NCBI RefSeq assembly: GCF_044324785.1 | Contig: NZ_CP172127.1 | Origin: Escherichia coli | GTDB lineage: Bacteria; Pseudomonadota; Gammaproteobacteria; Enterobacterales; Enterobacteriaceae | Length of the DNA stretch: 64,000 nucleotides | Direction: 5' to 3' (one strand) | Shown: in pieces, positions 12,421 to 33,849 of the stretch | Numbering within the stretch: position 1 is the stretch's first letter | Layout: every line of letters starts with the position of its first letter | Translations under genes and position numbers: made by a program | The notes under the pieces: model-generated | The model's input: only the letters and a program-made list of their open reading frames with translations | Told to the model about the DNA's origin: nothing | Database searches by the model: none

Positions 12421-12861
12421 ATGGACAAGCAACGCGGTTTTACACTTATCGAACTGATGGTGGTTATTGGCATCATTGCCATTTTAAGCGCCATTGGTAT
12501 TCCCGCTTATCAAAACTACCTGCGCAAAGCCGCACTCACCGACATGCTACAAACCTTTGTGCCTTACCGTACCGCCGTAGAGTTGTGCGCGCTGGAACAT
12601 GGTGGATTAGATACCTGCGACGGTGGCAGTAATGGCATCCCCTCGCCTACCACCACCCGCTATGTTTCAGCCATGAGTGTGGCAAAGGGCGTGGTGTCGC
12701 TGACCGGGCAAGAAAGTCTCAATGGGCTAAGCGTCGTCATGACGCCGGGTTGGGATAACGCAAACGGCGTCACCGGTTGGACGCGCAACTGCAATATTCA
12801 AAGTGACAGCGCATTGCAGCAAGCCTGCGAAGATGTCTTTCGCTTTGATGACGCCAACTAA
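12421..12861 (+). CDS. ppdD: Type IV prepilin-like major pilin
   Basis: 146 aa starting MDKQRGFTLIELMVVIGIIAILSAIGIPAYQNY (class III signal peptide, G-FTLIE motif). Confidence 0.94.
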   Translation: MDKQRGFTLIELMVVIGIIAILSAIGIPAYQNYLRKAALTDMLQTFVPYRTAVELCALEHGGLDTCDGGSNGIPSPTTTRYVSAMSVAKGVVSLTGQESLNGLSVVMTPGWDNANGVTGWTRNCNIQSDSALQQACEDVFRFDDAN

Positions 12862-12870
12862 GGAGCGGCA

Positions 12871-14256
12871 ATGAATATTCCACAGCTCACCGCCCTGTGT
12901 CTGCGTTATCAGGGAGTCTTGCTGGATGCCAGCGAAGAGGTGGTTCATGTTGCGGTAGTCGATGCACCTTCGCATGAGCTACTGGACGCATTGCATTTCG
13001 CTACCACCAAACGTATTGAGATCACCTGCTGGACGCGCCAACAGATGGAAGGTCACGCCAGTCGCACACAACAGACATTGCCCGTAGCTATTCATGAGAA
13101 GCATCAGCCCAAAGCAGAGTTGCTGACTCGAACGTTACAATCTGCGCTGGAACAACGCGCGTCTGATATTCATATCGAACCAGCGAACAATGCCTACCGC
13201 ATCCGCTTGCGTATCGACGGCGTATTGCATCCTTTACCGGATGTTTCACCGGATGCCGGAGTCGCATTAACCGCCAGATTAAAAGTGCTGGGAAACCTGG
13301 ATATTGCGGAACATCGCCTGCCGCAGGACGGGCAATTCACTGTCGAACTGGCAGGAAACGCCGTCTCATTTCGTATTGCGACCTTACCATGTCGGGGTGG
13401 TGAAAAGGTGGTATTAAGGTTGTTACAGCAGGTGAGCCAGGCACTGGATGTCAACACGCTGGGAATGCAGCCGTTACAACTGGCGGACTTTGCTCATACA
13501 TTGCAACAACCACAGGGATTGGTGCTGGTAACTGGCCCTACAGGCAGCGGCAAAACGGTCACGCTTTATAGTGCCCTGCAAACGCTGAATACCGCTGACA
13601 TTAATATTTGTAGCGTCGAAGATCCGGTTGAGATCCCCATAGCCGGACTAAACCAGACGCAAATCCATCCGCGTGCCGGACTCACCTTTCAGGGCGTTTT
13701 GCGTGCGTTATTGCGCCAGGACCCTGACGTCATCATGATCGGAGAGATCCGCGATGGCGAAACAGCAGAGATCGCTATTAAAGCCGCGCAAACCGGTCAC
13801 CTGGTGTTGTCCACGCTACACACCAACTCCACCTGCGAAACGCTGGTACGTTTACAGCAAATGGGAGTCGCCCGCTGGATGCTCTCATCAGCGCTTACGC
13901 TGGTAATAGCCCAGCGTCTGGTACGCAAACTTTGCCCACATTGTCGCCGACAGCAAGGGGAGCCAATCCATATTCCAGACAATGTATGGCCGTCGCCGCT
14001 GCCCCGCTGGCAAGCACCCGGTTGTGTACATTGCTACCACGGTTTTTATGGTCGTACGGCCTTATTTGAAGTTCTACCCATAACACCGATCATACGCCAG
14101 CTTATTTCCGCTAATACCGACGTTGAATCGCTGGAAACACACGCCCGACAGGCGGGTATGCGTACGCTTTTTGAAAACGGCTGCCTGGCCGTGGAGCAAG
14201 GCTTAACCACCTTTGAAGAGTTAATCCGCGTATTGGGGATGCCGCATGGCGAGTAA
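12871..14256 (+). CDS. hofB: Type IV pilus/T2SS-type assembly ATPase (GspE/PilB family)
   Basis: 461 aa with Walker A GPTGSGKT and a tetracysteine motif (CPHC...CVHC). Confidence 0.93.
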   Translation: MNIPQLTALCLRYQGVLLDASEEVVHVAVVDAPSHELLDALHFATTKRIEITCWTRQQMEGHASRTQQTLPVAIHEKHQPKAELLTRTLQSALEQRASDIHIEPANNAYRIRLRIDGVLHPLPDVSPDAGVALTARLKVLGNLDIAEHRLPQDGQFTVELAGNAVSFRIATLPCRGGEKVVLRLLQQVSQALDVNTLGMQPLQLADFAHTLQQPQGLVLVTGPTGSGKTVTLYSALQTLNTADINICSVEDPVEIPIAGLNQTQIHPRAGLTFQGVLRALLRQDPDVIMIGEIRDGETAEIAIKAAQTGHLVLSTLHTNSTCETLVRLQQMGVARWMLSSALTLVIAQRLVRKLCPHCRRQQGEPIHIPDNVWPSPLPRWQAPGCVHCYHGFYGRTALFEVLPITPIIRQLISANTDVESLETHARQAGMRTLFENGCLAVEQGLTTFEELIRVLGMPHGE

Positions 14257-15448
14257 GCAACTCTGGCGCTGGCATGGCATAACCGGCGACGGCAATGCGC
14301 AAGATGGGATGCTATGGGCAGAGAGCCGTGCTTTGCTGCTTATGGCACTACAGCAACAGATGGTTACCCCACTAAGCCTGAAGCGAATCGCCATCAATTC
14401 TGCGCAGTGGCGAGGAGATAAAAGCGCGGAAGTCATTCATCAACTGGCGACGCTACTCAAAGCCGGGTTAACGCTTTCTGAAGGGCTGGCACTGCTGGCG
14501 GAACAGCATCCCAGTAAGCAATGGCAAGCGTTGCTGCAATCGCTGGCGTACGATCTCGAACAGGGCATTGCTTTTTCCAATGCCTTATTACCCTGGTCAG
14601 AGGTATTTCCGCCGCTCTATCAGGCAATGATCCGCACGGGGGAATTGACTGGTAAGTTAGATGAATGTTGCTTTGAACTTGCTCGACAGCAAAAAGTCCA
14701 GCGTCAGTTAGCCGATAAAGTGAAATCAGCGTTGCGTTATCCCATCATCATTTTAGCGATGGCAATCATGGTGGTTGTGGCAATGCTGCATTTTGTGCTG
14801 CCGGAGTTTGCTGCTATTTATAAGACCTTCAACACCCCACTACCGGTACTAACGCAGGGGATCATGACGCTGGCAGACTTTAGTGGCGAATGGGGCTGGC
14901 TGCTGGTGTTGTTCGGCCTTCTGCTGGCGATAGCCAATAAGTTGCTGATGCGCCGCCCGACCTGGCTTATCGCGCGGCAGAAATGGCTGTTACGCATCCC
15001 GATTATGGGTTCACTGATGCGGGGACAAAAACTCACGCAGATCTTTACGATTCTGGCGCTGACTCAAAGTGCAGGCATTACTTTTTTACAGGGCGTTGAG
15101 AGCGTCAGAGAAACAATGCGCTGCCCGTACTGGGTGCAACTTCTGACACAAATCCAGCACGATATCAGTAACGGTCAACCCATCTGGCTGGCGCTAAAAA
15201 ATGCCGGTGAGTTTAGCCCACTCTGTTTGCAATTAGTGAGAACAGGAGAGGCATCCGGCTCGCTGGATCTCATGTTAGACAACCTCGCCCATCATCATCG
15301 GGATAACACAATGGCGCTGGCGGATAACCTCGCAGCCTTACTGGAACCGGCGTTGCTGATCATAACGGGAGGAATTATCGGTACGCTGGTGGTGGCAATG
15401 TATCTGCCAATTTTCCATTTAGGCGATGCGATGAGTGGAATGGGATAA
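14246..15448 (+). CDS. hofC: Type IV pilus platform protein (GspF/PilC family)
   Basis: 400 aa polytopic membrane protein. Overlaps hofB by 11 bp. Confidence 0.93.
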   Translation: MASKQLWRWHGITGDGNAQDGMLWAESRALLLMALQQQMVTPLSLKRIAINSAQWRGDKSAEVIHQLATLLKAGLTLSEGLALLAEQHPSKQWQALLQSLAYDLEQGIAFSNALLPWSEVFPPLYQAMIRTGELTGKLDECCFELARQQKVQRQLADKVKSALRYPIIILAMAIMVVVAMLHFVLPEFAAIYKTFNTPLPVLTQGIMTLADFSGEWGWLLVLFGLLLAIANKLLMRRPTWLIARQKWLLRIPIMGSLMRGQKLTQIFTILALTQSAGITFLQGVESVRETMRCPYWVQLLTQIQHDISNGQPIWLALKNAGEFSPLCLQLVRTGEASGSLDLMLDNLAHHHRDNTMALADNLAALLEPALLIITGGIIGTLVVAMYLPIFHLGDAMSGMG

Positions 15449-15482
15449 CGCTGGCGTGTTGCTCCACGCCAGCGTTGGGAGA

Positions 15483-16526
15483 TTACAGGTTGTTGAAGAT
15501 GCGGTTTTCTTGTTCCAGCACACGGATAAATGTGGTGCGCTTGGTCAGCTCTTTCAGGCGTGAAGCCCCAACGTATGTACAAGCTGAACGCAGGCCGCCC
15601 AAAATATCACGCGCGGTATTTTCAACCGGGCCTCGCAGCGGCAGCTTAACGGTTTTACCTTCTGCTGCGCGATATTCCGCAACGCCGCCAACGTGACGTT
15701 TCATCGCAGACTCGGAGCTCATGCCGTAGAACAGCATAAATTTCTCGCCGTTCTCCTCAACGATGCGACCGCCGCTCTCTTCGTGGCCCGCCAGCATGCC
15801 GCCAAGCATGACGAAATCGGCACCGCCGCCAAAAGCTTTCGCGACATCGCCCGGCGTGGTGCAGCCACCATCGCTGACGATCATTCCGCCCAGACCGTGC
15901 GCAGCATCGGCACATTCGATTACCGCAGAAAGTTGCGGATAACCGACGCCTGTTTTGACACGAGTTGTACAAACAGAACCTGGGCCAATGCCAACTTTAA
16001 CGATATCGGCACCGGAGAGGATAAGCTCCTCACACATTTCACCAGTCACTACGTTGCCAGCACAAATGGTTTTGGTCGGCCACGCTTCACGCGCTTTCGC
16101 AACGAACTGCACGAAGTGTTCGGAATAACCATTCGCCACATCAATACAAACGAAGTTTAATGCCGGGTTCAGGTCGAGAATCTGTTTAGTTTTTTCGAAA
16201 TCCGCATCAGACGTACCGGTAGAAACCATCACATGTTTCAGCACATCAGCGGAAGAATTGTTGATAAACGCTTGCCACTCTTCGACAGAATAGTGTTTAT
16301 GCACAGCAGTCAAAATATCAAAAGAAGCCAGCGCAGAGGCCATAGAAAATGTGCCTACGGTGTCCATATTTGCGGCGATAATCGGCACGCCGGACCAGCT
16401 CTGACCTGAATGTTTGAAGGTGAATTGACGTTCCAGTTCAACATCGGAACGGCTTTTAAGAGTGGAGCGTTTAGGGCGGATGAGAACGTCTTTAAAACCT
16501 AACTTCAGATCTTCTTCAATACGCAT
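15483..16526 (-). CDS. guaC: GMP reductase
   Basis: 347 aa starting [33 protein letters not shown] (IMPDH/GMPR TIM barrel). Convergent with hofC. Confidence 0.95.
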
Positions 16527-18325: not shown

Positions 18326-18420
18326 TTGTCTGATGCGACGCTGGCCTGATAAGACGCGCCAGCGTCGCATCGGGCATCTTGTGCAAATGTTGGATGCGGC
18401 ATAAACGCCTATCCGACATA
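18326..18420. repeat. REP/BIME cluster between yacG and mutT
   Basis: tgatgcgacgctggcctgataagacgcgccagcgtcgcatc is palindromic, followed by ggatgcggcataaacgcctatccgacat. Both match E. coli REP consensus types. Confidence 0.85.
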
Positions 18421-18807
18421 TACACGCTTAAGCTTCGCAAGTACCGGTTCATTGGCTGGCGGAAAATCATCGGCATTCAGACCGACCAGCGCCATCCACT
18501 CACCGGGTTGCCCTTCTTTACCCCACGGCTCCCCTTCCCAGCTTTCGACCAGCCAAAACCACAGTGTTATATGCCTGTCCGGGAATTCATATTCCAGTTT
18601 TTCAAATAGCGAAAAATGTTGTGGGGTAATCCCGACCTCTTCCTGAAGTTCACGCACCACCGCCTGTTCCGGCGTTTCGCCCATTTCAATTTTACCGCCG
18701 GGAAACTCCAGTTTATTCGCCATGTGCGCATCTGCTGCGCGACGCGTTATAAAGATTTCATTGTTCTCGTTGCGAATAATACCTACCGCAATTTGCAGCT
18801 TTTTCAT
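18409..18807 (-). CDS. mutT: 8-oxo-dGTP diphosphatase (Nudix)
   Basis: 132 aa starting MKKLQIAVGIIRNENNEIFITRRAADAHMANKLEFPGGKIEMGETPEQAVVRELQEEVG (Nudix box). The last three codons and the stop lie inside the REP element. Confidence 0.93.
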   Translation of the reverse strand: MKKLQIAVGIIRNENNEIFITRRAADAHMANKLEFPGGKIEMGETPEQAVVRELQEEVGITPQHFSLFEKLEYEFPDRHITLWFWLVESWEGEPWGKEGQPGEWMALVGLNADDFPPANEPVLAKLKRVYVG

Positions 18808-18866
18808 TGTCTTAAACCTATAAAAAAGGCGCAGAATCCTGCGCCTTTTACTTCAACTGTTAGCTT

Positions 18867-21572
18867 TTATTGCAGGCGACCATGGCACTGCTTGTATTTT
18901 TTACCAGAACCGCACGGGCAAGGATCGTTACGTCCTACTTTGCGCTCACCGGTTTGCGCCGCCAGTGCAGCTGCGGCTGCAGAGTCGTCATCCTGATGGC
19001 TAAGCTGCTGCATTTGCGCTAAACGCTCGGCTTCCATACGACGCTGTTGTTCCAGCTCCTCAACCTCTTCAGGCATACGTACCTGAACTTTGCTCAGCGT
19101 GCTGATAACTTCATATTTCAACGACTCCAGCATCGCTGCAAACATGGAGAACGATTCACGTTTGTATTCCTGCTTCGGATCTTTCTGTGCATAGCCACGC
19201 AGGTGGATACCCTGACGCAGATAGTCCATCGCTGCCAGGTGCTCTTTCCACAGGGAGTCAAGCGTTTGCAGCATGACGCCTTTCTCGAAGTGACGCATCA
19301 TCTCAGCACCAACCACTTCTTCTTTACGCTGATACACTTCGATGGACTGCGCCAGAATGCGCTCACGCAGCGTCTCTTCATGCAGTTCTGGTTCTTTATC
19401 CAGCCACTCGGCAATTGGCAAATCGAGGTCGAAATCGTTCTTCAGACGTTCCTGCAGCCCCGGAATATCCCACATTTCTTCCAGCGACTGTGGCGGAATG
19501 TAGGCATCAATGGTCGCTTTGAACACATCTTCACGAATGCTGTTGATGGTTTCGCTCACATCGCTGACATCCAACAGTTCGTTACGCTGGGAGTAAATGG
19601 CGCGACGCTGATCGTTAGCCACGTCATCATATTCCAGCAGTTGCTTACGAATGTCGAAGTTACGACTTTCAACTTTACGCTGGGCGTTGGCAATCGCTTT
19701 AGTCACCCACGGGTGTTCAATGGCTTCGCCTGGCTTCATACCCAGTTTACGCATCATGCCGGATACTCGGTCGGAAGCAAAAATACGCATCAGCGCATCT
19801 TCCATCGACAGGTAGAAACGGGAAGAACCAGCATCCCCCTGACGACCAGAACGACCGCGCAACTGGTTATCGATACGACGGGATTCGTGACGCTCGGTAC
19901 CGATGATATGCAGGCCACCTGCTGCCAGTACCGCATCGTGACGTACCTGCCAGTCGGCTTTAATTTTTTCAATTTGCTCTGCGGTCGGATTTTCCAGCGC
20001 GGCAACTTCTGCCTGCCAGCTACCACCGAGCACAATATCTGTACCACGACCCGCCATGTTGGTCGCGATAGTCACCGCAGCCGGATAACCTGCCTGAGCA
20101 ACAATCGCCGCTTCGTTGGCATGGAATTTGGCGTTCAGGACATTGTGCTTAATACCGGCTTTGGTCAGTTCGTTTGACACCAGCTCCGATTTTTCGATGG
20201 AGATAGTACCCACCAGCACCGGCTGGCCTTTCGCAGTACGCTCTTTGATATCTTCAATGATCGCCTGAATTTTTTCCGCTTCAGTCATGTAGACCAGGTC
20301 CGGCAGATCTTTACGAATCATTGGACGGTTGGTCGGAACAACGACGGTATCCAGCTTGTAGATGGAGCTGAATTCGAAAGCTTCGGTATCAGCAGTACCG
20401 GTCATCCCCGCCAGTTTTTCATACAGACGGAAGTAGTTCTGGAAAGTGATCGACGCCAGCGTCTGGTTTTCGTTCTGGATCTGTACACCTTCTTTCGCTT
20501 CCACAGCCTGGTGCAGGCCATCGGACCAACGACGTCCCTGCATGGTACGACCGGTGTGTTCGTCAACGATGATAACTTCACCATCTTTAACGATGTAGTC
20601 GACGTCTCGGGTAAACAGCGCATGAGCGCGCAGCGCCGCCGTTACGTGGTGCATCAGCATGATGTTGGCCGGAGAGTACAGAGACTCCCCTTCATCCATG
20701 ATGCCTTCTTTCACCAGCAGTTCTTCAATCAGCACCAGACCACGTTCGGTCAGGTTCACCTGGCGAGATTTTTCGTCCACCGAGAAGTGGCCTTCGCCCT
20801 GGAAGGTTTCGGAGTCTTCTTTTTCCTGACGGATCAGGTGCGGAATAATTTTATTCACGCGTTTATACATTTCCGAGCTGTCTTCTGCCGGGCCGGAAAT
20901 GATCAGCGGTGTACGCGCTTCATCGATCAGGATGGAGTCCACTTCGTCCACCAGCGCATAGTGCAGTTTACGCTGTACACGTTCTTCAGGGCTGAACGCC
21001 ATGTTATCGCGCAGGTAGTCAAAGCCGTATTCGTTGTTCGTACCGTAAGTGATGTCAGCTGCGTAAGCTTCACGCTTCGCCGGTGCTGGCATGCCCGGCA
21101 GGTTGATACCGACAGTCAGGCCAAGGAATTCAAACAGCGGACGGTTGTTTTCGGCGTCACGTTGCGCCAGGTAGTCGTTGACGGTAACAACGTGTACGCC
21201 CTTACCGGTTAATGCGTTCAGGTAAGCAGGCAGCGTTGCGGTCAGGGTTTTACCTTCACCGGTACGCATTTCGGCGATGCAGCGTTCGTTAAGAACCATA
21301 CCGCCGAGTAACTGAACGTCGAAGTGACGCATACCAAAGACGCGCTTACTTGCCTCACGCACCACGGCGAAAGCTTCCGGGATCAGATTTTCCAGCACTT
21401 CGCCTTTTTCCAGACGTGCACGAAACTCTGCGGTTTTCCCTTTCAGTTCTTCGTCGGAGAGTTTTTCCATCTCCGGTTCCATGGCATTGATGATGTTGAC
21501 CACTTTGCGCATCCGGCGCAGGGTGCGATCGTTACGACTACCGAAAACTTTAGTTAATAATTTGATTAGCAT
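18867..21572 (-). CDS. secA: Preprotein translocase ATPase SecA
   Basis: 901 aa starting [26 protein letters not shown]-terminal zinc-binding [14 protein letters not shown]. Confidence 0.97.
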
Positions 21573-23394: not shown

Positions 23395-24546
23395 TTAATC
23401 AGCTTGCTTACGCAGGAATGCTGGGATATCCAGATAATCCGGCTCTTTCGCAGTTTGCGGTGCATTGTCATTCACGACTTTAGCAACCGGCTTCTGCTCC
23501 TGGGTCAGCGGAGCCATCCCGTGCTGCTGGTAGCGATCCATCACTGGCTGCTGAACCTGCTTATTGGTCACCAGAGTGATTTCAGGACGTTTGTCCATGC
23601 CGATACCTGTCGCAACAACAGTTACGCGCAGCTCGTCATTCATATCCGGGTCAAGAGAAGTACCGATAACCACAGTCGCGTTGTCGGAAGCAAATGCACG
23701 GATGGTGTTACCTACCGTTTCGAACTCATCCAGACGCAGGTCGAAGCCCGCCGTGATGTTAACCAGCACGCCGCGTGCGCCAGACAGGTCGATATCTTCC
23801 AGCAGCGGAGAAGAGATAGCCATTTCAGCAGCTTCTTCCGCACGGTCTTCACCACTCGCCACGCCAGAACCCATCATTGCGTAGCCCATTTCAGACATTA
23901 CGGTGCGTACGTCTGCAAAGTCCACGTTCATCAAACCCGGACGAGTAATCAGTTCAGCGATACCTTGCACAGCGCCTTTCAGTACATCGTTCGCTGCGCC
24001 AAACGCATCCAGCAGGGAGATACCGCGGCCCAGAACTTTCAGCAGTTTGTCGTTCGGGATAGTGATCAGAGAGTCCACATGTTTGGACAGTTCAGTGATC
24101 CCCTGCTCCGCGAATGCCATACGCTTCTTGCCTTCAAAGTTGAAAGGCTTAGTGACGACAGCAACGGTCAGGATACCCAAATCTTTTGCCACTTCAGCGA
24201 CGACTGGTGCTGCACCTGTACCGGTACCACCACCCATACCCGCTGCGATAAAGACCATGTCTGCACCTTCCAGCGCCGCACGCAGTGCATCGCGATCCTC
24301 ATCAGCCGCATTACGGCCAACTTCTGGATTAGCGCCAGCGCCCAGTCCTTTGGTGATACCGCTACCGATTTGAATCGTCTGTCCAACCGCTGTTTTACGC
24401 AGCGCTTGTGCATCGGTATTTACCGCGAAGAATTCAACACCTTCAATGCGCTCGCGCACCATGTGTTCAACAGCATTACCGCCGCCGCCGCCGACGCCGA
24501 TGACTTTAATCACCGCGTCATTGGTAAGTTCCATTGGTTCAAACAT
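23395..24546 (-). CDS. ftsZ: Cell division GTPase FtsZ
   Basis: 383 aa with the tubulin signature GGGTGTG. Confidence 0.97.
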
Positions 24547-24606
24547 AGTTTCTCTCCGATTTGTGCCTGTCGCCTGAGGCCGTAATCATCGTCGGCCTCA
24601 TAAAAA

Positions 24607-25869
24607 TTAAAACTCTTTTCGCAGCCAACTATTGAGTCGCTTGATCCACGAGCCAACTGATGCTGTAACACGTTTTTCTACTTCAGCTTCACCGTTAAGA
24701 TGTGACTCTTTCCCATAGTGAAGCAATCCCACCGCCGTCGAATAATACGGCTCCTGAGCATAATCCGTTAAACCGGTAATGTTCAGCGGCGCGCCGATAC
24801 GCACTTGCGTATGAAACACGCGCTGAGCACAGGCTGCAAGACCTTCGATCTGCGCTGCGCCACCAGTTAAAACAATGCCTGCCGCCAGGTGATGTTTAAC
24901 CCCTTGTTGGCGAAGCTTTTCCTGCAACTGCAATATCTCTTCGTTGACCAGGTTGAGCAGCTCGGTATAGCGCGGCTCGATCACCTCTGCCAGGGTCTGA
25001 CGTTGCAGACTCCGCGGCGGACGACCACCTACGCTCGGCACTTCCACGCTCTCATCTTTTCCAACGATGGAACCCAGCGCACAACCGTGGCGAACTTTAA
25101 TCGCTTCGGCGTCGCTTGGCGGCGTGCCAAAGGCGTAAGCGATATCACTGGTCACGACATTGCCAGCATAAGGAATTACCTTAGTGTGGCGCAATGCCCC
25201 ACCGGTATAAACGGCGATATCCATTGTACCACCACCGATATCGACGACGCAGACACCCAGTTCACGTTCATCTTCCGTCAATACCGAATAACTTGATGCC
25301 AGTCCGGCAAATATCAGTTGGTCAACTTTCAGCCCACAACGTTCAACCGCTTTGACGATGTTTTTCGCCATATCGTTGTGACATGTGATCAGGTGCACTT
25401 TTGCCTGCATCCTCACGCCCGAAAGTCCTACCGGATTCTTGATCCCTTCCTGATAGTCAATCGCATACTCTTGCGGGATCACATGCAGCACACGATGCTC
25501 ATCGCGCACACGCACCGATTTCGCGGTATGGACGACGTTTTCCACATCTTCTTGCGTCACTTCTTCTTCAGAAATAGGCACCATACCAATTTCATTCTGG
25601 CAGCTGATGTGCTTACCAGAAAGCGCCAGATATACCGAAGAGATCTGACAATCTGCCATCAATTCTGCCTGGTCAATGGCGCGTTGTACGCACTTGACCA
25701 CGGATTCGAGGTCGTTCACCCCGCCTTTATCCATACCACGTGACGGGCAGCTGCCCACGCCAATGATATTGACCATACCGTCGGGCAGAACTTCCCCTAC
25801 TAAAGCGGCAACCTTCGCGGTACCAATCTCCAGTCCTACTACCAGTTTTCTGTCCGTCGCCTTGATCAT
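24607..25869 (-). CDS. ftsA: Cell division protein FtsA
   Basis: 420 aa starting [27 protein letters not shown] (actin-like ATPase). Confidence 0.97.
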
Positions 25870-32766: not shown

Positions 32767-33849
32767 TTAACGTACCTTCAGCGTTGCCAGACCAATCAGG
32801 ACCAGCATCAGCGAAATAATCCAGAAACGCACAATGACGCGCGGTTCCGGCCAGCCTTTCAGTTCATAGTGGTGATGAATCGGTGCCATGCGGAAAATAC
32901 GTTGTCCGCGCAGTTTAAAGGAGCCGACCTGCAGGATGACGGAAAGTGTTTCTACCACGAACACGCCCCCCATAATCACCAGCAGGAATTCCTGACGCAG
33001 CAGTACGGCGATAATACCTAACGCACCACCTAACGCCAGCGAACCGACATCGCCCATAAAGACCTGCGCCGGATAGGTGTTAAACCACAGGAAGCCCAGC
33101 CCTGCCCCGACTATCGCGGTACAGACAATGACCAGTTCCCCGGCGTGTCGTAGATACGGTATGTGTAAATAGCTGGCAAAGTTCATGTTGCCGGTCGCCC
33201 ACGCCACCAGCGCAAAACCACCGGCGACAAATACGGTCGGCATAATTGCCAGACCGTCGAGACCATCAGTCAGGTTTACCGCGTTGCCTGTACCCACAAT
33301 GACGAAGTAAGCCAGCAGAATGTAGAACAGCCCCAGTTGCGGCATCACATCTTTAAAGAACGGAACCACCAGCTGCGTTGCGGGCGTGTCTTTGCCGGCA
33401 AGGTACAGCGCGAAGGCAACACCCAGCGCGATCACCGACATCCAGAAATACTTCCAGCGCGCAATCAGGCCCTTGGTGTCTTTACGCACCACTTTGCGAT
33501 AGTCATCAACAAAGCCAATGATGCCGTAACCTACCAGCACCACCAGTACGCACCAAACGTACGGATTGGATGGGTAAGCCCACAGCAGTACGGAGATCAC
33601 AATTGCTGTCAGGATCATAATCCCGCCCATGGTCGGCGTACCGCGCTTGCTGAAGTGTGATTCAGGACCGTCGTTACGCACTACCTGACCAAAGGAAAGT
33701 TTTTGCAAATGAGCAATCATGCGCGGGCCCATCCACAATGAGATGAACAGCGCAGTCAGCAGGCTGACGATGGCGCGAAACGTCAGATAGGAAAAGACGT
33801 TAAAGCCGGAATAATATTTGACCAAATGTTCGGCCAGCCAAACTAACAT
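32767..33849 (-). CDS. mraY: Phospho-N-acetylmuramoyl-pentapeptide transferase
   Basis: 360 aa starting [28 protein letters not shown]. Confidence 0.96.

Follow-up and report, generated by a model that had tools for sequence, protein, structure and literature searches.

The locus hcpABC of EHEC O157:H7 (filament 6gv9, pilin domain 6gms) is orthologous to the E. coli locus described here, with about 96.7% nucleotide identity. In Haemophilus influenzae, the orthologous set of pilin, ATPase and platform forms part of the pilABCD competence operon, which has a Sxy-requiring CRP-S promoter (PMC1635313). The pilA, pilB and pilC genes of Pseudomonas aeruginosa, Myxococcus and Geobacter code for the same pilin (short leader, G|F...E5), extension ATPase and platform, and a homologous architecture of pseudopilin, ATPase and platform is found in type II secretion (GspG, GspE and GspF), with the Pfam domains T2SSE and T2SSF in common. 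Compared to the pilA/pilB/pilC systems, the E. coli operon has neither a pilD peptidase nor a pilT retraction ATPase gene next to it, and pilD, the fourth gene of the H. influenzae operon, is also missing. The window analyzed here, i.e., the whole stretch of 64,000 nucleotides of E. coli DNA, almost certainly carries, judging by its sequence, the intact chromosomal ppdD-hofB-hofC operon (hcpABC in EHEC), which encodes the central parts of the type IVa pilus and competence machinery of enterobacteria.

Layout of the operon and its pilin

The ORF listing contained three same-strand frames at this place, all of them free of internal stops when translated. They are given below together with the Shine-Dalgarno sequences recognized by reading the sequence.

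12407 to 12412, plus strand: Shine-Dalgarno sequence AAGGAG of ppdD, 8 nt before the ATG
12421 to 12861, plus strand: ppdD (hcpA), type IVa major prepilin, 146 aa (K-12 identity, Pfam, NCBIfam, PDB match)
12860 to 12865, plus strand: Shine-Dalgarno sequence AAGGAG of hofB, overlapping the ppdD stop codon, 5 nt ahead of the hofB ATG
12871 to 14256, plus strand: hofB (hcpB), hexameric assembly ATPase of the PilB/GspE family, 461 aa (Pfam, NCBIfam, PDB relatives)
14246 to 15448, plus strand: hofC (hcpC), polytopic inner-membrane platform protein of the PilC/GspF family, 400 aa (Pfam, NCBIfam, PDB relative)

The genes are tightly packed, with only 9 nt between ppdD and hofB and 11 nt shared by the end of hofB and the start of hofC (14246-14256), an arrangement expected of a single operon. 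The overlap suggests that the translation of hofB and hofC may be coupled. The Shine-Dalgarno sequence of ppdD did not vary across four E. coli lineages. Upstream, a spacer of 202 bp separates ppdD from nadC (stop codon 12216-12218) and, downstream, hofC is followed after 34 nt by the convergent guaC. By synteny with strain N3, the gene order along the window is yacH-lpd-aceFE-pdhR ... dcw cluster ... leu ... thiBPQ-araCBAD. The corresponding genes of K-12 MG1655 (b0108, b0107 and b0106) match in order, strand relationship, lengths (146, 461 and 400 aa) and flanks, and share the gap and the overlap. The interval between the nadC and guaC stops (3,264 bp) could be aligned to K-12 MG1655 without gaps, i.e., with no indel, frameshift or premature stop.

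The original prediction had described 12421-15448 as a ppdD-hofB-hofC pilus module of three full-length genes with intact motifs, to be checked for frameshifts and premature stops by alignment to a reference. The gene identities agree both with how RefSeq annotates the syntenic locus and with the NCBIfam equivalogs, the lengths equal those of K-12, the motifs were all located and the alignment turned up neither kind of lesion, so the annotation of these genes in the window is safe. The term module holds for the core of pilin, motor and platform but not for a self-sufficient unit; hofMNOPQ, the minor pilin genes (ppdAB-ygdB-ppdC) and a prepilin peptidase gene were all absent from the 64-kb window.

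The amino acid sequence of PpdD is 100% identical to that of K-12 (NP_414650). Residues 1-11 read MDKQRG|FTLIE, with a six-residue leader (MDKQRG, 12421-12438) and F1 and E5 in the mature protein. The class III signal peptide is thus complete (MDKQRG|FTLIELMVVIGIIAILSAIGIP), with a basic leader ending in Gly, Phe at +1 and Glu at +5, and the hydrophobic segment spans aa 4-32. The scores were 39.9 bits against PF07963 N_methyl (threshold 21.2), 35.9 against TIGR02532 (threshold 16.3) and 269.3 against the NCBIfam equivalog NF007862 (cut-off 138), the latter aligning aa 1-145 to profile positions 1-144 of 145. The match to the EHEC pilus structure 6gv9 had E = 3e-91, and its chain begins at query residue 7. 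The precursor has cysteines at 56, 66, 124 and 136, that is 50, 60, 118 and 130 of the mature pilin, which by position would correspond to the two known disulfides. The bonds of PpdD-type pilins, including a second disulfide (C50-C60) of the enterobacterial subclass, have been described (bioRxiv 10.1101/2021.04.14.439816); this predicted second bond sets PpdD apart from the pilins of the pilA/pilB/pilC systems. Comparison with the functional residues listed in the same work showed that G11, P22, K30, D35, C50, E53, H54, C60, E92, C118, C130, E131, D132, R135 and D137 are all retained. Relative to the EHEC system, every residue reported as important for assembly, disulfides or calcium binding is kept.

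Going by the papers cited here and by what is established about type IV pili, a prepilin peptidase encoded elsewhere would cut PpdD after Gly6 and methylate Phe1; processed pilin of the K-12 protein, identical to ours, has been seen after sxy induction (PMC3330819). A HofB hexamer would then dock on HofC and spend ATP to lift pilins from the inner membrane into the growing filament, which would exit via the HofQ secretin; HofMNOP and four minor pilins (PpdA, PpdB, YgdB and PpdC) would also be required. According to published experiments, the resulting pilus would serve DNA uptake and/or adhesion. It is quite possible, although we lean slightly away from it, that the main job in this strain is adhesion to the host and virulence (the “haemorrhagic coli pilus”), and not DNA uptake. 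The reports on EHEC O157:H7 describe PpdD pili assembled on minimal casein medium (PMC2649431) and mediating adherence, invasion and cytokine induction (PMC2920817; PMC2649431), and the latter also mentions that the hofQ secretin aids kidney colonization by UPEC and that hcpABC expressed in K-12 leads to surface PpdD. The pilin of the window is one residue apart from that of O157:H7 strain F7349 (T115 instead of A115, mature numbering). However, the three genes are members of the Sxy/CRP-S competence regulon (PMC1635313), and DNA uptake that is induced by sxy and depends on hofQ has been demonstrated (PMC3330819), even if uptake in E. coli is very low and natural transformation was not obtained under the tested conditions without the help of recombineering (PMC3330819). 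The two roles are compatible with each other, and the sequence does not tell them apart. Piliation has been demonstrated for EHEC.

The promoter region and the hairpins

The regions bordering the operon contain the following features.

12227 to 12259, plus strand: nadC 3' hairpin, just past the nadC stop and followed by a C/T-rich stretch (MFE -16 kcal/mol, z = -1.89, weak)
12274 to 12295, plus strand: candidate CRP-S site at a putative position, core 12277-12292 (TTCGTAACGCCTCGCA)
15446 to 15477, no strand assigned: hofC-guaC hairpin, perfect, 13 bp, G+C-rich, filling the 34-nt convergent gap (-23.2 kcal/mol, z = -3.78)

In ordinary culture the operon would be off, and Sxy (TfoX) together with cAMP-CRP would switch it on through a weak CRP-S site, most likely the one at 12274-12295. 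In K-12, ppdD showed a 90-fold induction that needed both Sxy and cAMP-CRP, its transcript had gone undetected in earlier attempts, and the fragment shifted by CRP (primers ppdDF/ppdDR) contains the position of the candidate (PMC1635313). On the minus strand the candidate reads ATTTGCGA-GGCGTT-ACGAAGAA; one of its half-sites is a perfect TGCGA, and there are two mismatches overall. It is the sole match to TGCGA-N6-TCGCA with two mismatches or fewer in the 202-bp spacer and is identical in the four E. coli lineages, although by pattern alone it is not distinguishable. Along the whole window the pattern was not above chance (33 matches vs. 47.8 expected) and therefore has no discriminating power by itself. 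A scan of 12100-15700 for the sigma-70 consensus gave no promoter (2.5 expected by chance), which fits an activator-dependent promoter, a class for which such a scan is uninformative.

At 12314-12319, on the downstream side of the candidate site and about a class II spacing (roughly 41.5 bp) from its center, the window has CGTAAT in place of the CGAAAT of K-12, O157:H7 and strain 131, and CGTAAT is the better of the two as a predicted -10 hexamer. It seems very unlikely to us that this allele would raise basal, Sxy-independent expression and make the pilus constitutive or easier to express in this lineage, a proposal built on a single SNP and predicted sites.

We recognized both hairpins when we read the sequence and folded it. 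A canonical U-tract is missing from each of them, in the case of the hofC-guaC hairpin on either side. The arms of the nadC hairpin are kept in K-12, O157:H7 and strain 131, and it could plausibly act as a nadC terminator shielding ppdD from read-through. The hofC-guaC hairpin is kept in the same three strains, except that a G-C pair has become A-C in O157, and none of 200 shuffles folded as well; it is probably the 3' end or a stabilizer of both transcripts. A terminator scan detected nine weak intragenic matches (4.4 expected) and none at the ends of the operon, the repeat search of 12100-15700 found just short pairs at chance level, and the search of the whole window against Rfam gave no RNA family within 12200-15500.

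Conservation and selection

Among complete E. coli genomes, 5,424 of 5,426 contain the 3,264-bp interval between nadC and guaC with an identity of at least 96.3%. Nucleotide identity to K-12 was 97–99%, with a few SNPs in the promoter spacer, and strain N3 differed from the window by one base over the interval. The original prediction had considered the cluster not novel, usually cryptic under laboratory conditions and nevertheless worth noting for its intactness. Its presence in nearly all complete genomes confirms the first point, and on the second the literature agrees (PMC1635313, PMC3330819), Sxy and cAMP-CRP being required. As to the third, the genes are indeed intact, but this is what the species normally shows and is hardly remarkable. 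Nearly all E. coli genomes have the operon intact, and for this reason we regard it as real but not new, a core-genome feature already characterized genetically, structurally and for its regulation.

Among the four lineages, the pairwise dN/dS values of ppdD, hofB and hofC were all between 0.00 and 0.15 (dS 0.02–0.15), which indicates purifying selection and not decay, in spite of the silence of these genes in the laboratory. We give next to no credit to the idea that the cluster is an evolutionary relic, with ORFs still open but no longer under selection and heading to pseudogenes. The lack of expression in K-12 or the 72 ECOR strains when grown in the usual laboratory conditions (PMC3330819; PMC1635313), with PpdD pilin detected in none of the 72 (PMC3330819), the missing sigma-70-like promoter in 12100-15700, and dS and dN values of hofB and hofC that exceed those of their neighbors nadC and guaC would be in its favor; however, it is contradicted by the four-lineage dN/dS estimates and by the conservation of the locus, without a single indel against K-12 and with all the catalytic motifs intact, while Sxy induction and processed pilin have both been published (PMC1635313; PMC3330819), and it was dropped.

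The HofB ATPase and the HofC platform

HofB carries every box of the T2SSE/PilB-type ATPases plus the tetracysteine motif. We located Walker A (GPTGSGKT) at aa 222-229 (nt 13534-13557), the Asp box (EDPVE) at 250-254 (nt 13618-13632), Walker B (LRQDPDVIMIGEIRD) at 281-295 (nt 13711-13755), with DPDVIMIGEIRD inside it, the His box (GHLVLSTLHTN) at 309-319 (nt 13795-13827), and the tetracysteine pairs CPHC at 355-358 (nt 13933-13944) and CVHC at 385-388 (nt 14023-14034). The protein scored 485.6 bits against PF00437 T2SSE and 820.5 against the NCBIfam equivalog NF007755, labelled “GspE” (cut-off 617), with aa 2-460 aligned to positions 6-464 of 465. Residues 79-454 align to the PilB of Geobacter with every box conserved. 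The N-terminus is about 100–125 residues shorter than in PilB, and Pfam recognized in it a single short MshEN-like domain (aa 8-69). HofB remained below the PilB equivalog TIGR02538 (484.6 bits, cut-off 675.65), only profile positions 169-561 of 564 being matched. HofB is predicted to work like PilB though outside the PilB equivalog.

HofC has two T2SSF stretches (PF00482, 187.2 bits) and, in a simple hydropathy scan, three stretches of hydrophobic character (roughly aa 159-192, 212-237 and 361-395), in keeping with the tandem domains and three transmembrane regions of a PilC/GspF platform. It scored 656.8 bits against the NCBIfam equivalog NF007861 (cut-off 401), aa 1-399 covering positions 1-401 of 401. 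It aligns to the PilC of Myxococcus, and the match to PilC 3jc8 had E = 5.5e-43 over aa 64-395. The E-values of PpdD, HofB and HofC against their curated family models (7.6e-81, 3.5e-247 and 1.2e-197) point to homology rather than chance.

The reading of hofB and hofC as parts of a type II secretion system, working in protein secretion and not in pilus assembly, can be practically discarded. PGAP and NF007755 do call the HofB family “GspE” (“type II secretion system protein GspE” in RefSeq), the two kinds of machine are homologous, and the Vibrio EpsE/GspE structures (E about 1e-99) are matched nearly as well as the best solved relatives, PilB 5zfr, 6olj and 5tsg (about 1e-104). However, HofB and HofC were below the equivalog cut-offs of GspE (TIGR02533, 455.9 vs. 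630.25 bits) and GspF (TIGR02120, 267 vs. 424), PpdD was likewise below that of GspG, and their operon partner is a true type IVa pilin that forms an extracellular filament with a solved structure (6gv9), not a GspG pseudopilin. In addition, gspC, D and H-M genes were not found nearby, and the type II secretion gene clusters of E. coli are described as separate from the type IV pilus genes (PMC2649431). Cut-offs and genomic context led us to drop this reading, and we consider the RefSeq product name of hofB a labelling quirk and no evidence of a secretion role.

From K-12 to the window, HofB has nine substitutions (H14Q, V74I, Q75H, D106N, G189S, A210T, K238T, H379R and V407I) and HofC eleven (T29A, H102Y, A151V, T156A, A201V, S217G, F225L, V243A, L247W, T320A and E353D), none of them within the catalytic motifs. 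Residue 353 of HofC is D in the window; N3 has N there and K-12 has E.

The pilus operon and its products

In the window, ppdD, hofB and hofC form a tightly coupled operon encoding a type IVa pilin, a PilB-type ATPase and a PilC-type platform protein. According to the ORF list of the region, ppdD and hofB are separated by 9 nt and hofB overlaps hofC by 11 nt, and the outer ends of the ORFs coincide with those of the original prediction. The remaining ORFs in the span, on either strand, are short and wholly nested in one of the three genes, and were treated as mechanical by-products. The locus reads aroP-ampE-ampD-nadC-ppdD-hofB-hofC-guaC-yacM-coaE-zapD-yacG-mutT-secA, and the gene order around the operon is identical in K-12, although on the opposite strand there.

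Genes and ribosome-binding motifs (Shine-Dalgarno motifs from reading of the sequence)
12407-12412, plus strand: Shine-Dalgarno AAGGAG of ppdD
12421-12861, plus strand: ppdD, ORF of 146 aa
12860-12865, plus strand: Shine-Dalgarno AAGGAG of hofB
12871-14256, plus strand: hofB, ORF of 461 aa
14246-15448, plus strand: hofC, ORF of 400 aa

All three products pass their curated NCBIfam equivalogs: PpdD NF007862 (269.3 vs. a cut-off of 138), HofB NF007755 (the HofB family, named "GspE"; 820.5 vs. 617) and HofC NF007861 (656.8 vs. 401). The generic PilB, GspE, GspF and PilC equivalogs gave strong matches, yet under their cut-offs. Of the 564 positions in the PilB model HofB covers only 169-561, and it falls below the cut-off because most of the long N-terminal region of PilB is missing; it is best described as PilB-like in working but an enterobacterial subfamily of its own. 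Among Pfam families, PpdD matched N_methyl and, marginally, Pilin (21.6 bits, just below the cut-off of 22), HofB matched T2SSE (485.6 bits) and has a short MshEN domain at its N-terminus, and HofC contained two T2SSF stretches. The RefSeq product name invites the reading of hofB and hofC as type II secretion components, but this is contradicted by the true pilin in the same operon, by the failure of both proteins to reach the GspE and GspF cut-offs and by the absence of other gsp genes.

The motifs of the pilus machinery (prepilin leader, Walker A ATPase and platform protein) had been predicted to be intact, and a direct motif search recovered them all: the PpdD leader MDKQRG/FTLIE, three hydrophobic regions in HofC and the HofB boxes listed below. 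None of these motif boxes carries a substitution relative to K-12.

HofB motifs (residues)
222-229: Walker A
250-254: Asp box
281-295: Walker B
309-319: His box
355-358 and 385-388: CPHC and CVHC pairs

Solved relatives agree with these assignments. PpdD matched the EHEC type IV pilus filament (PDB 6gv9, E = 3e-91), whose chain starts at PpdD residue 7, the mature N-terminus expected from cleavage after Gly6, and also the pilin domain 6gms. In EHEC PpdD the linker ends (G11, P22), two disulfides (C50-C60, C118-C130) and the calcium/assembly residues K30, D35, E53, H54, E92, E131, D132, R135 and D137 have been described (bioRxiv 10.1101/2021.04.14.439816), and the pilin of the window carries every one. 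The O157:H7 F7349 pilin differs solely at mature residue 115 (T in the window, A in F7349). The best solved relatives of HofB were the PilB ATPases 5zfr, 6olj and 5tsg (E ~1e-104), with Vibrio EpsE/GspE close behind, and that of HofC was Myxococcus PilC (3jc8, E = 5.5e-43).

Conservation and selection

The region 12000-16000 was matched by megablast in 5,424 of the 5,426 complete E. coli genomes. In their annotation, the matched stretch carries nadC, ppdD, "gspE" (the PGAP name for hofB here), hofC and guaC. The 3,264-bp interval from the nadC stop to the guaC stop was at least 80% covered in 5,423 genomes, with identities from 96.3% to a rounded 100.0%. Its best match was strain N3 (NZ_CP031609.1), differing by one base (position 15302) that alters HofC residue 353 (D in the window, N in N3, E in K-12). 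Against K-12 MG1655 the interval aligned without gaps and the three genes had equal lengths; PpdD was 100% identical in amino acids (5 synonymous differences), while hofB had 41 nucleotide and 9 amino-acid differences and hofC 38 and 11. Lengths were also equal, with no internal stops, in the window, O157:H7 F7349 and strain 131. The genes are thus full length as predicted, alignment to references showing no frameshift or premature stop. The original prediction had also judged the cluster not novel, and intactness is indeed the rule in E. coli: this is a textbook core-genome locus, already known, with structures solved and regulon described.

Nei-Gojobori estimates (four alleles only: window, K-12, O157:H7 and strain 131)
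ppdD: dN/dS 0.00-0.15, dS 0.02-0.08
hofB: dN/dS 0.04-0.12, dS 0.06-0.11
hofC: dN/dS 0.10-0.15, dS 0.07-0.15
nadC and guaC (neighbors): dN/dS 0.00-0.07, dS below those of hofB and hofC

Over these four sequences the pilus genes are clearly under purifying selection, and evolve somewhat faster than their housekeeping neighbors. The locus could be taken for a relic or pseudogene in decay, but purifying selection together with near-universal retention contradicts this idea, which is therefore rejected.

Regulation and role of the pilus

The promoter scan found no sigma-70-like promoter in 12100-15700, which is explained by the published CRP/Sxy-dependent induction. Expression of ppdD mRNA rises 90-fold on Sxy induction and needs CRP plus cAMP, and purified CRP weakly but specifically shifts the K-12 fragment between primers ppdDF and ppdDR (PMC1635313), approximately 12209-12336 in the window. 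The view of the cluster as cryptic in the laboratory is borne out by the ECOR collection, where 0 of 72 strains made PpdD unless sxy was induced, processed pilin being seen on induction (PMC3330819).

Within the 202-bp nadC-ppdD spacer, 12277-12292 is the sole match with at most two mismatches to TGCGA-N6-TCGCA, the pattern of CRP-S (Sxy-dependent CRP) sites, and lies within a 43-bp block invariant in four lineages; in the window as a whole, the pattern occurs no more often than expected by chance. We propose it as the candidate CRP-S site of ppdD. About 41.5 bp downstream of its center, 12314-12319 reads CGTAAT against CGAAAT in K-12, O157:H7 and strain 131, one step nearer to a -10 hexamer; that this single promoter SNP might improve a -10 element, and matter, is speculative and very improbable.

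Hairpins flanking the operon
12227-12259: modest hairpin after the nadC stop (folding z = -1.89), which could limit read-through from co-directional nadC
15446-15477: strong, conserved 13-bp hairpin filling the gap between convergent hofC and guaC

What is established about type IV pili, together with the cited experiments, leads us to infer that a prepilin peptidase encoded elsewhere would cut the 6-residue PpdD leader and methylate Phe1, that a HofB hexamer engaged with HofC would insert PpdD subunits into the filament, and that HofQ would form its outer-membrane passage, along with HofMNOP and four minor pilins. None of these partner genes lies within the 64-kb window, whose gene content, running from yacH to polB, matches that annotated in strain N3. 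DNA uptake depends on sxy and hofQ (PMC3330819); two papers describe a role in adhesion and virulence in EHEC, under the name haemorrhagic coli pilus (PMC2920817; PMC2649431), and kidney persistence of UPEC was shown via the hofQ secretin (PMC2649431). Adhesion and DNA uptake are not exclusive as physiological roles, and the sequence does not discriminate between them.

Other features of the window

As in N3, the window lacks setA, a sugar exporter gene found in K-12 between sgrS/sgrT and leuD: the gap 51003-51308 between leuD (50397-51002) and sgrR (~51309-52988) holds only SgrS (Rfam RF00534, 51036-51262, minus strand). A 189-aa ORF (53217-53786, minus strand) occupies the spacer from sgrR to the thiB TPP riboswitch (54027-54126), a spacer that in K-12 contains nothing but sroA and the riboswitch. 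This ORF is the counterpart of a gene annotated "T3SS effector EspY2" in syntenic N3, and looks like a small strain-variable insertion.

MutT (18409-18807, minus strand) has 132 aa ending in AKLKRVYVG, as against 129 aa ending in AKLKRL in K-12, and also carries R89S, S105A and I123V; the N3 protein has the same length as that of the window. An Rfam naRNA4/CssrE match (18343-18418) overlaps the mutT 3' end.

Of 97 mismatches to N3 in 1-30000, the first 7 kb (yacH-lpd-aceF-aceE) account for 87 and 9001-15000 for none, while identity drops to 98.4% beyond ~57.5 kb. This clustering suggests a mosaic produced by recombination between lineages. The N3 RefSeq record labels mraY and ilvI as frameshifted pseudogenes, whereas both ORFs are uninterrupted in the window (32767-33849 and 42497-44311). 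Errors in the N3 assembly, or lesions specific to that strain, are the probable source of its frameshifts.

Three further Rfam matches at gathering score, unrelated to the pilus operon, belong to known enterobacterial sRNA and leader families.

6956-7069, plus strand: tp2, between aceE and pdhR
18822-18891, minus strand: STnc40, secA 3' end towards mutT
24538-24627, minus strand: PssrA, ftsA-ftsZ junction
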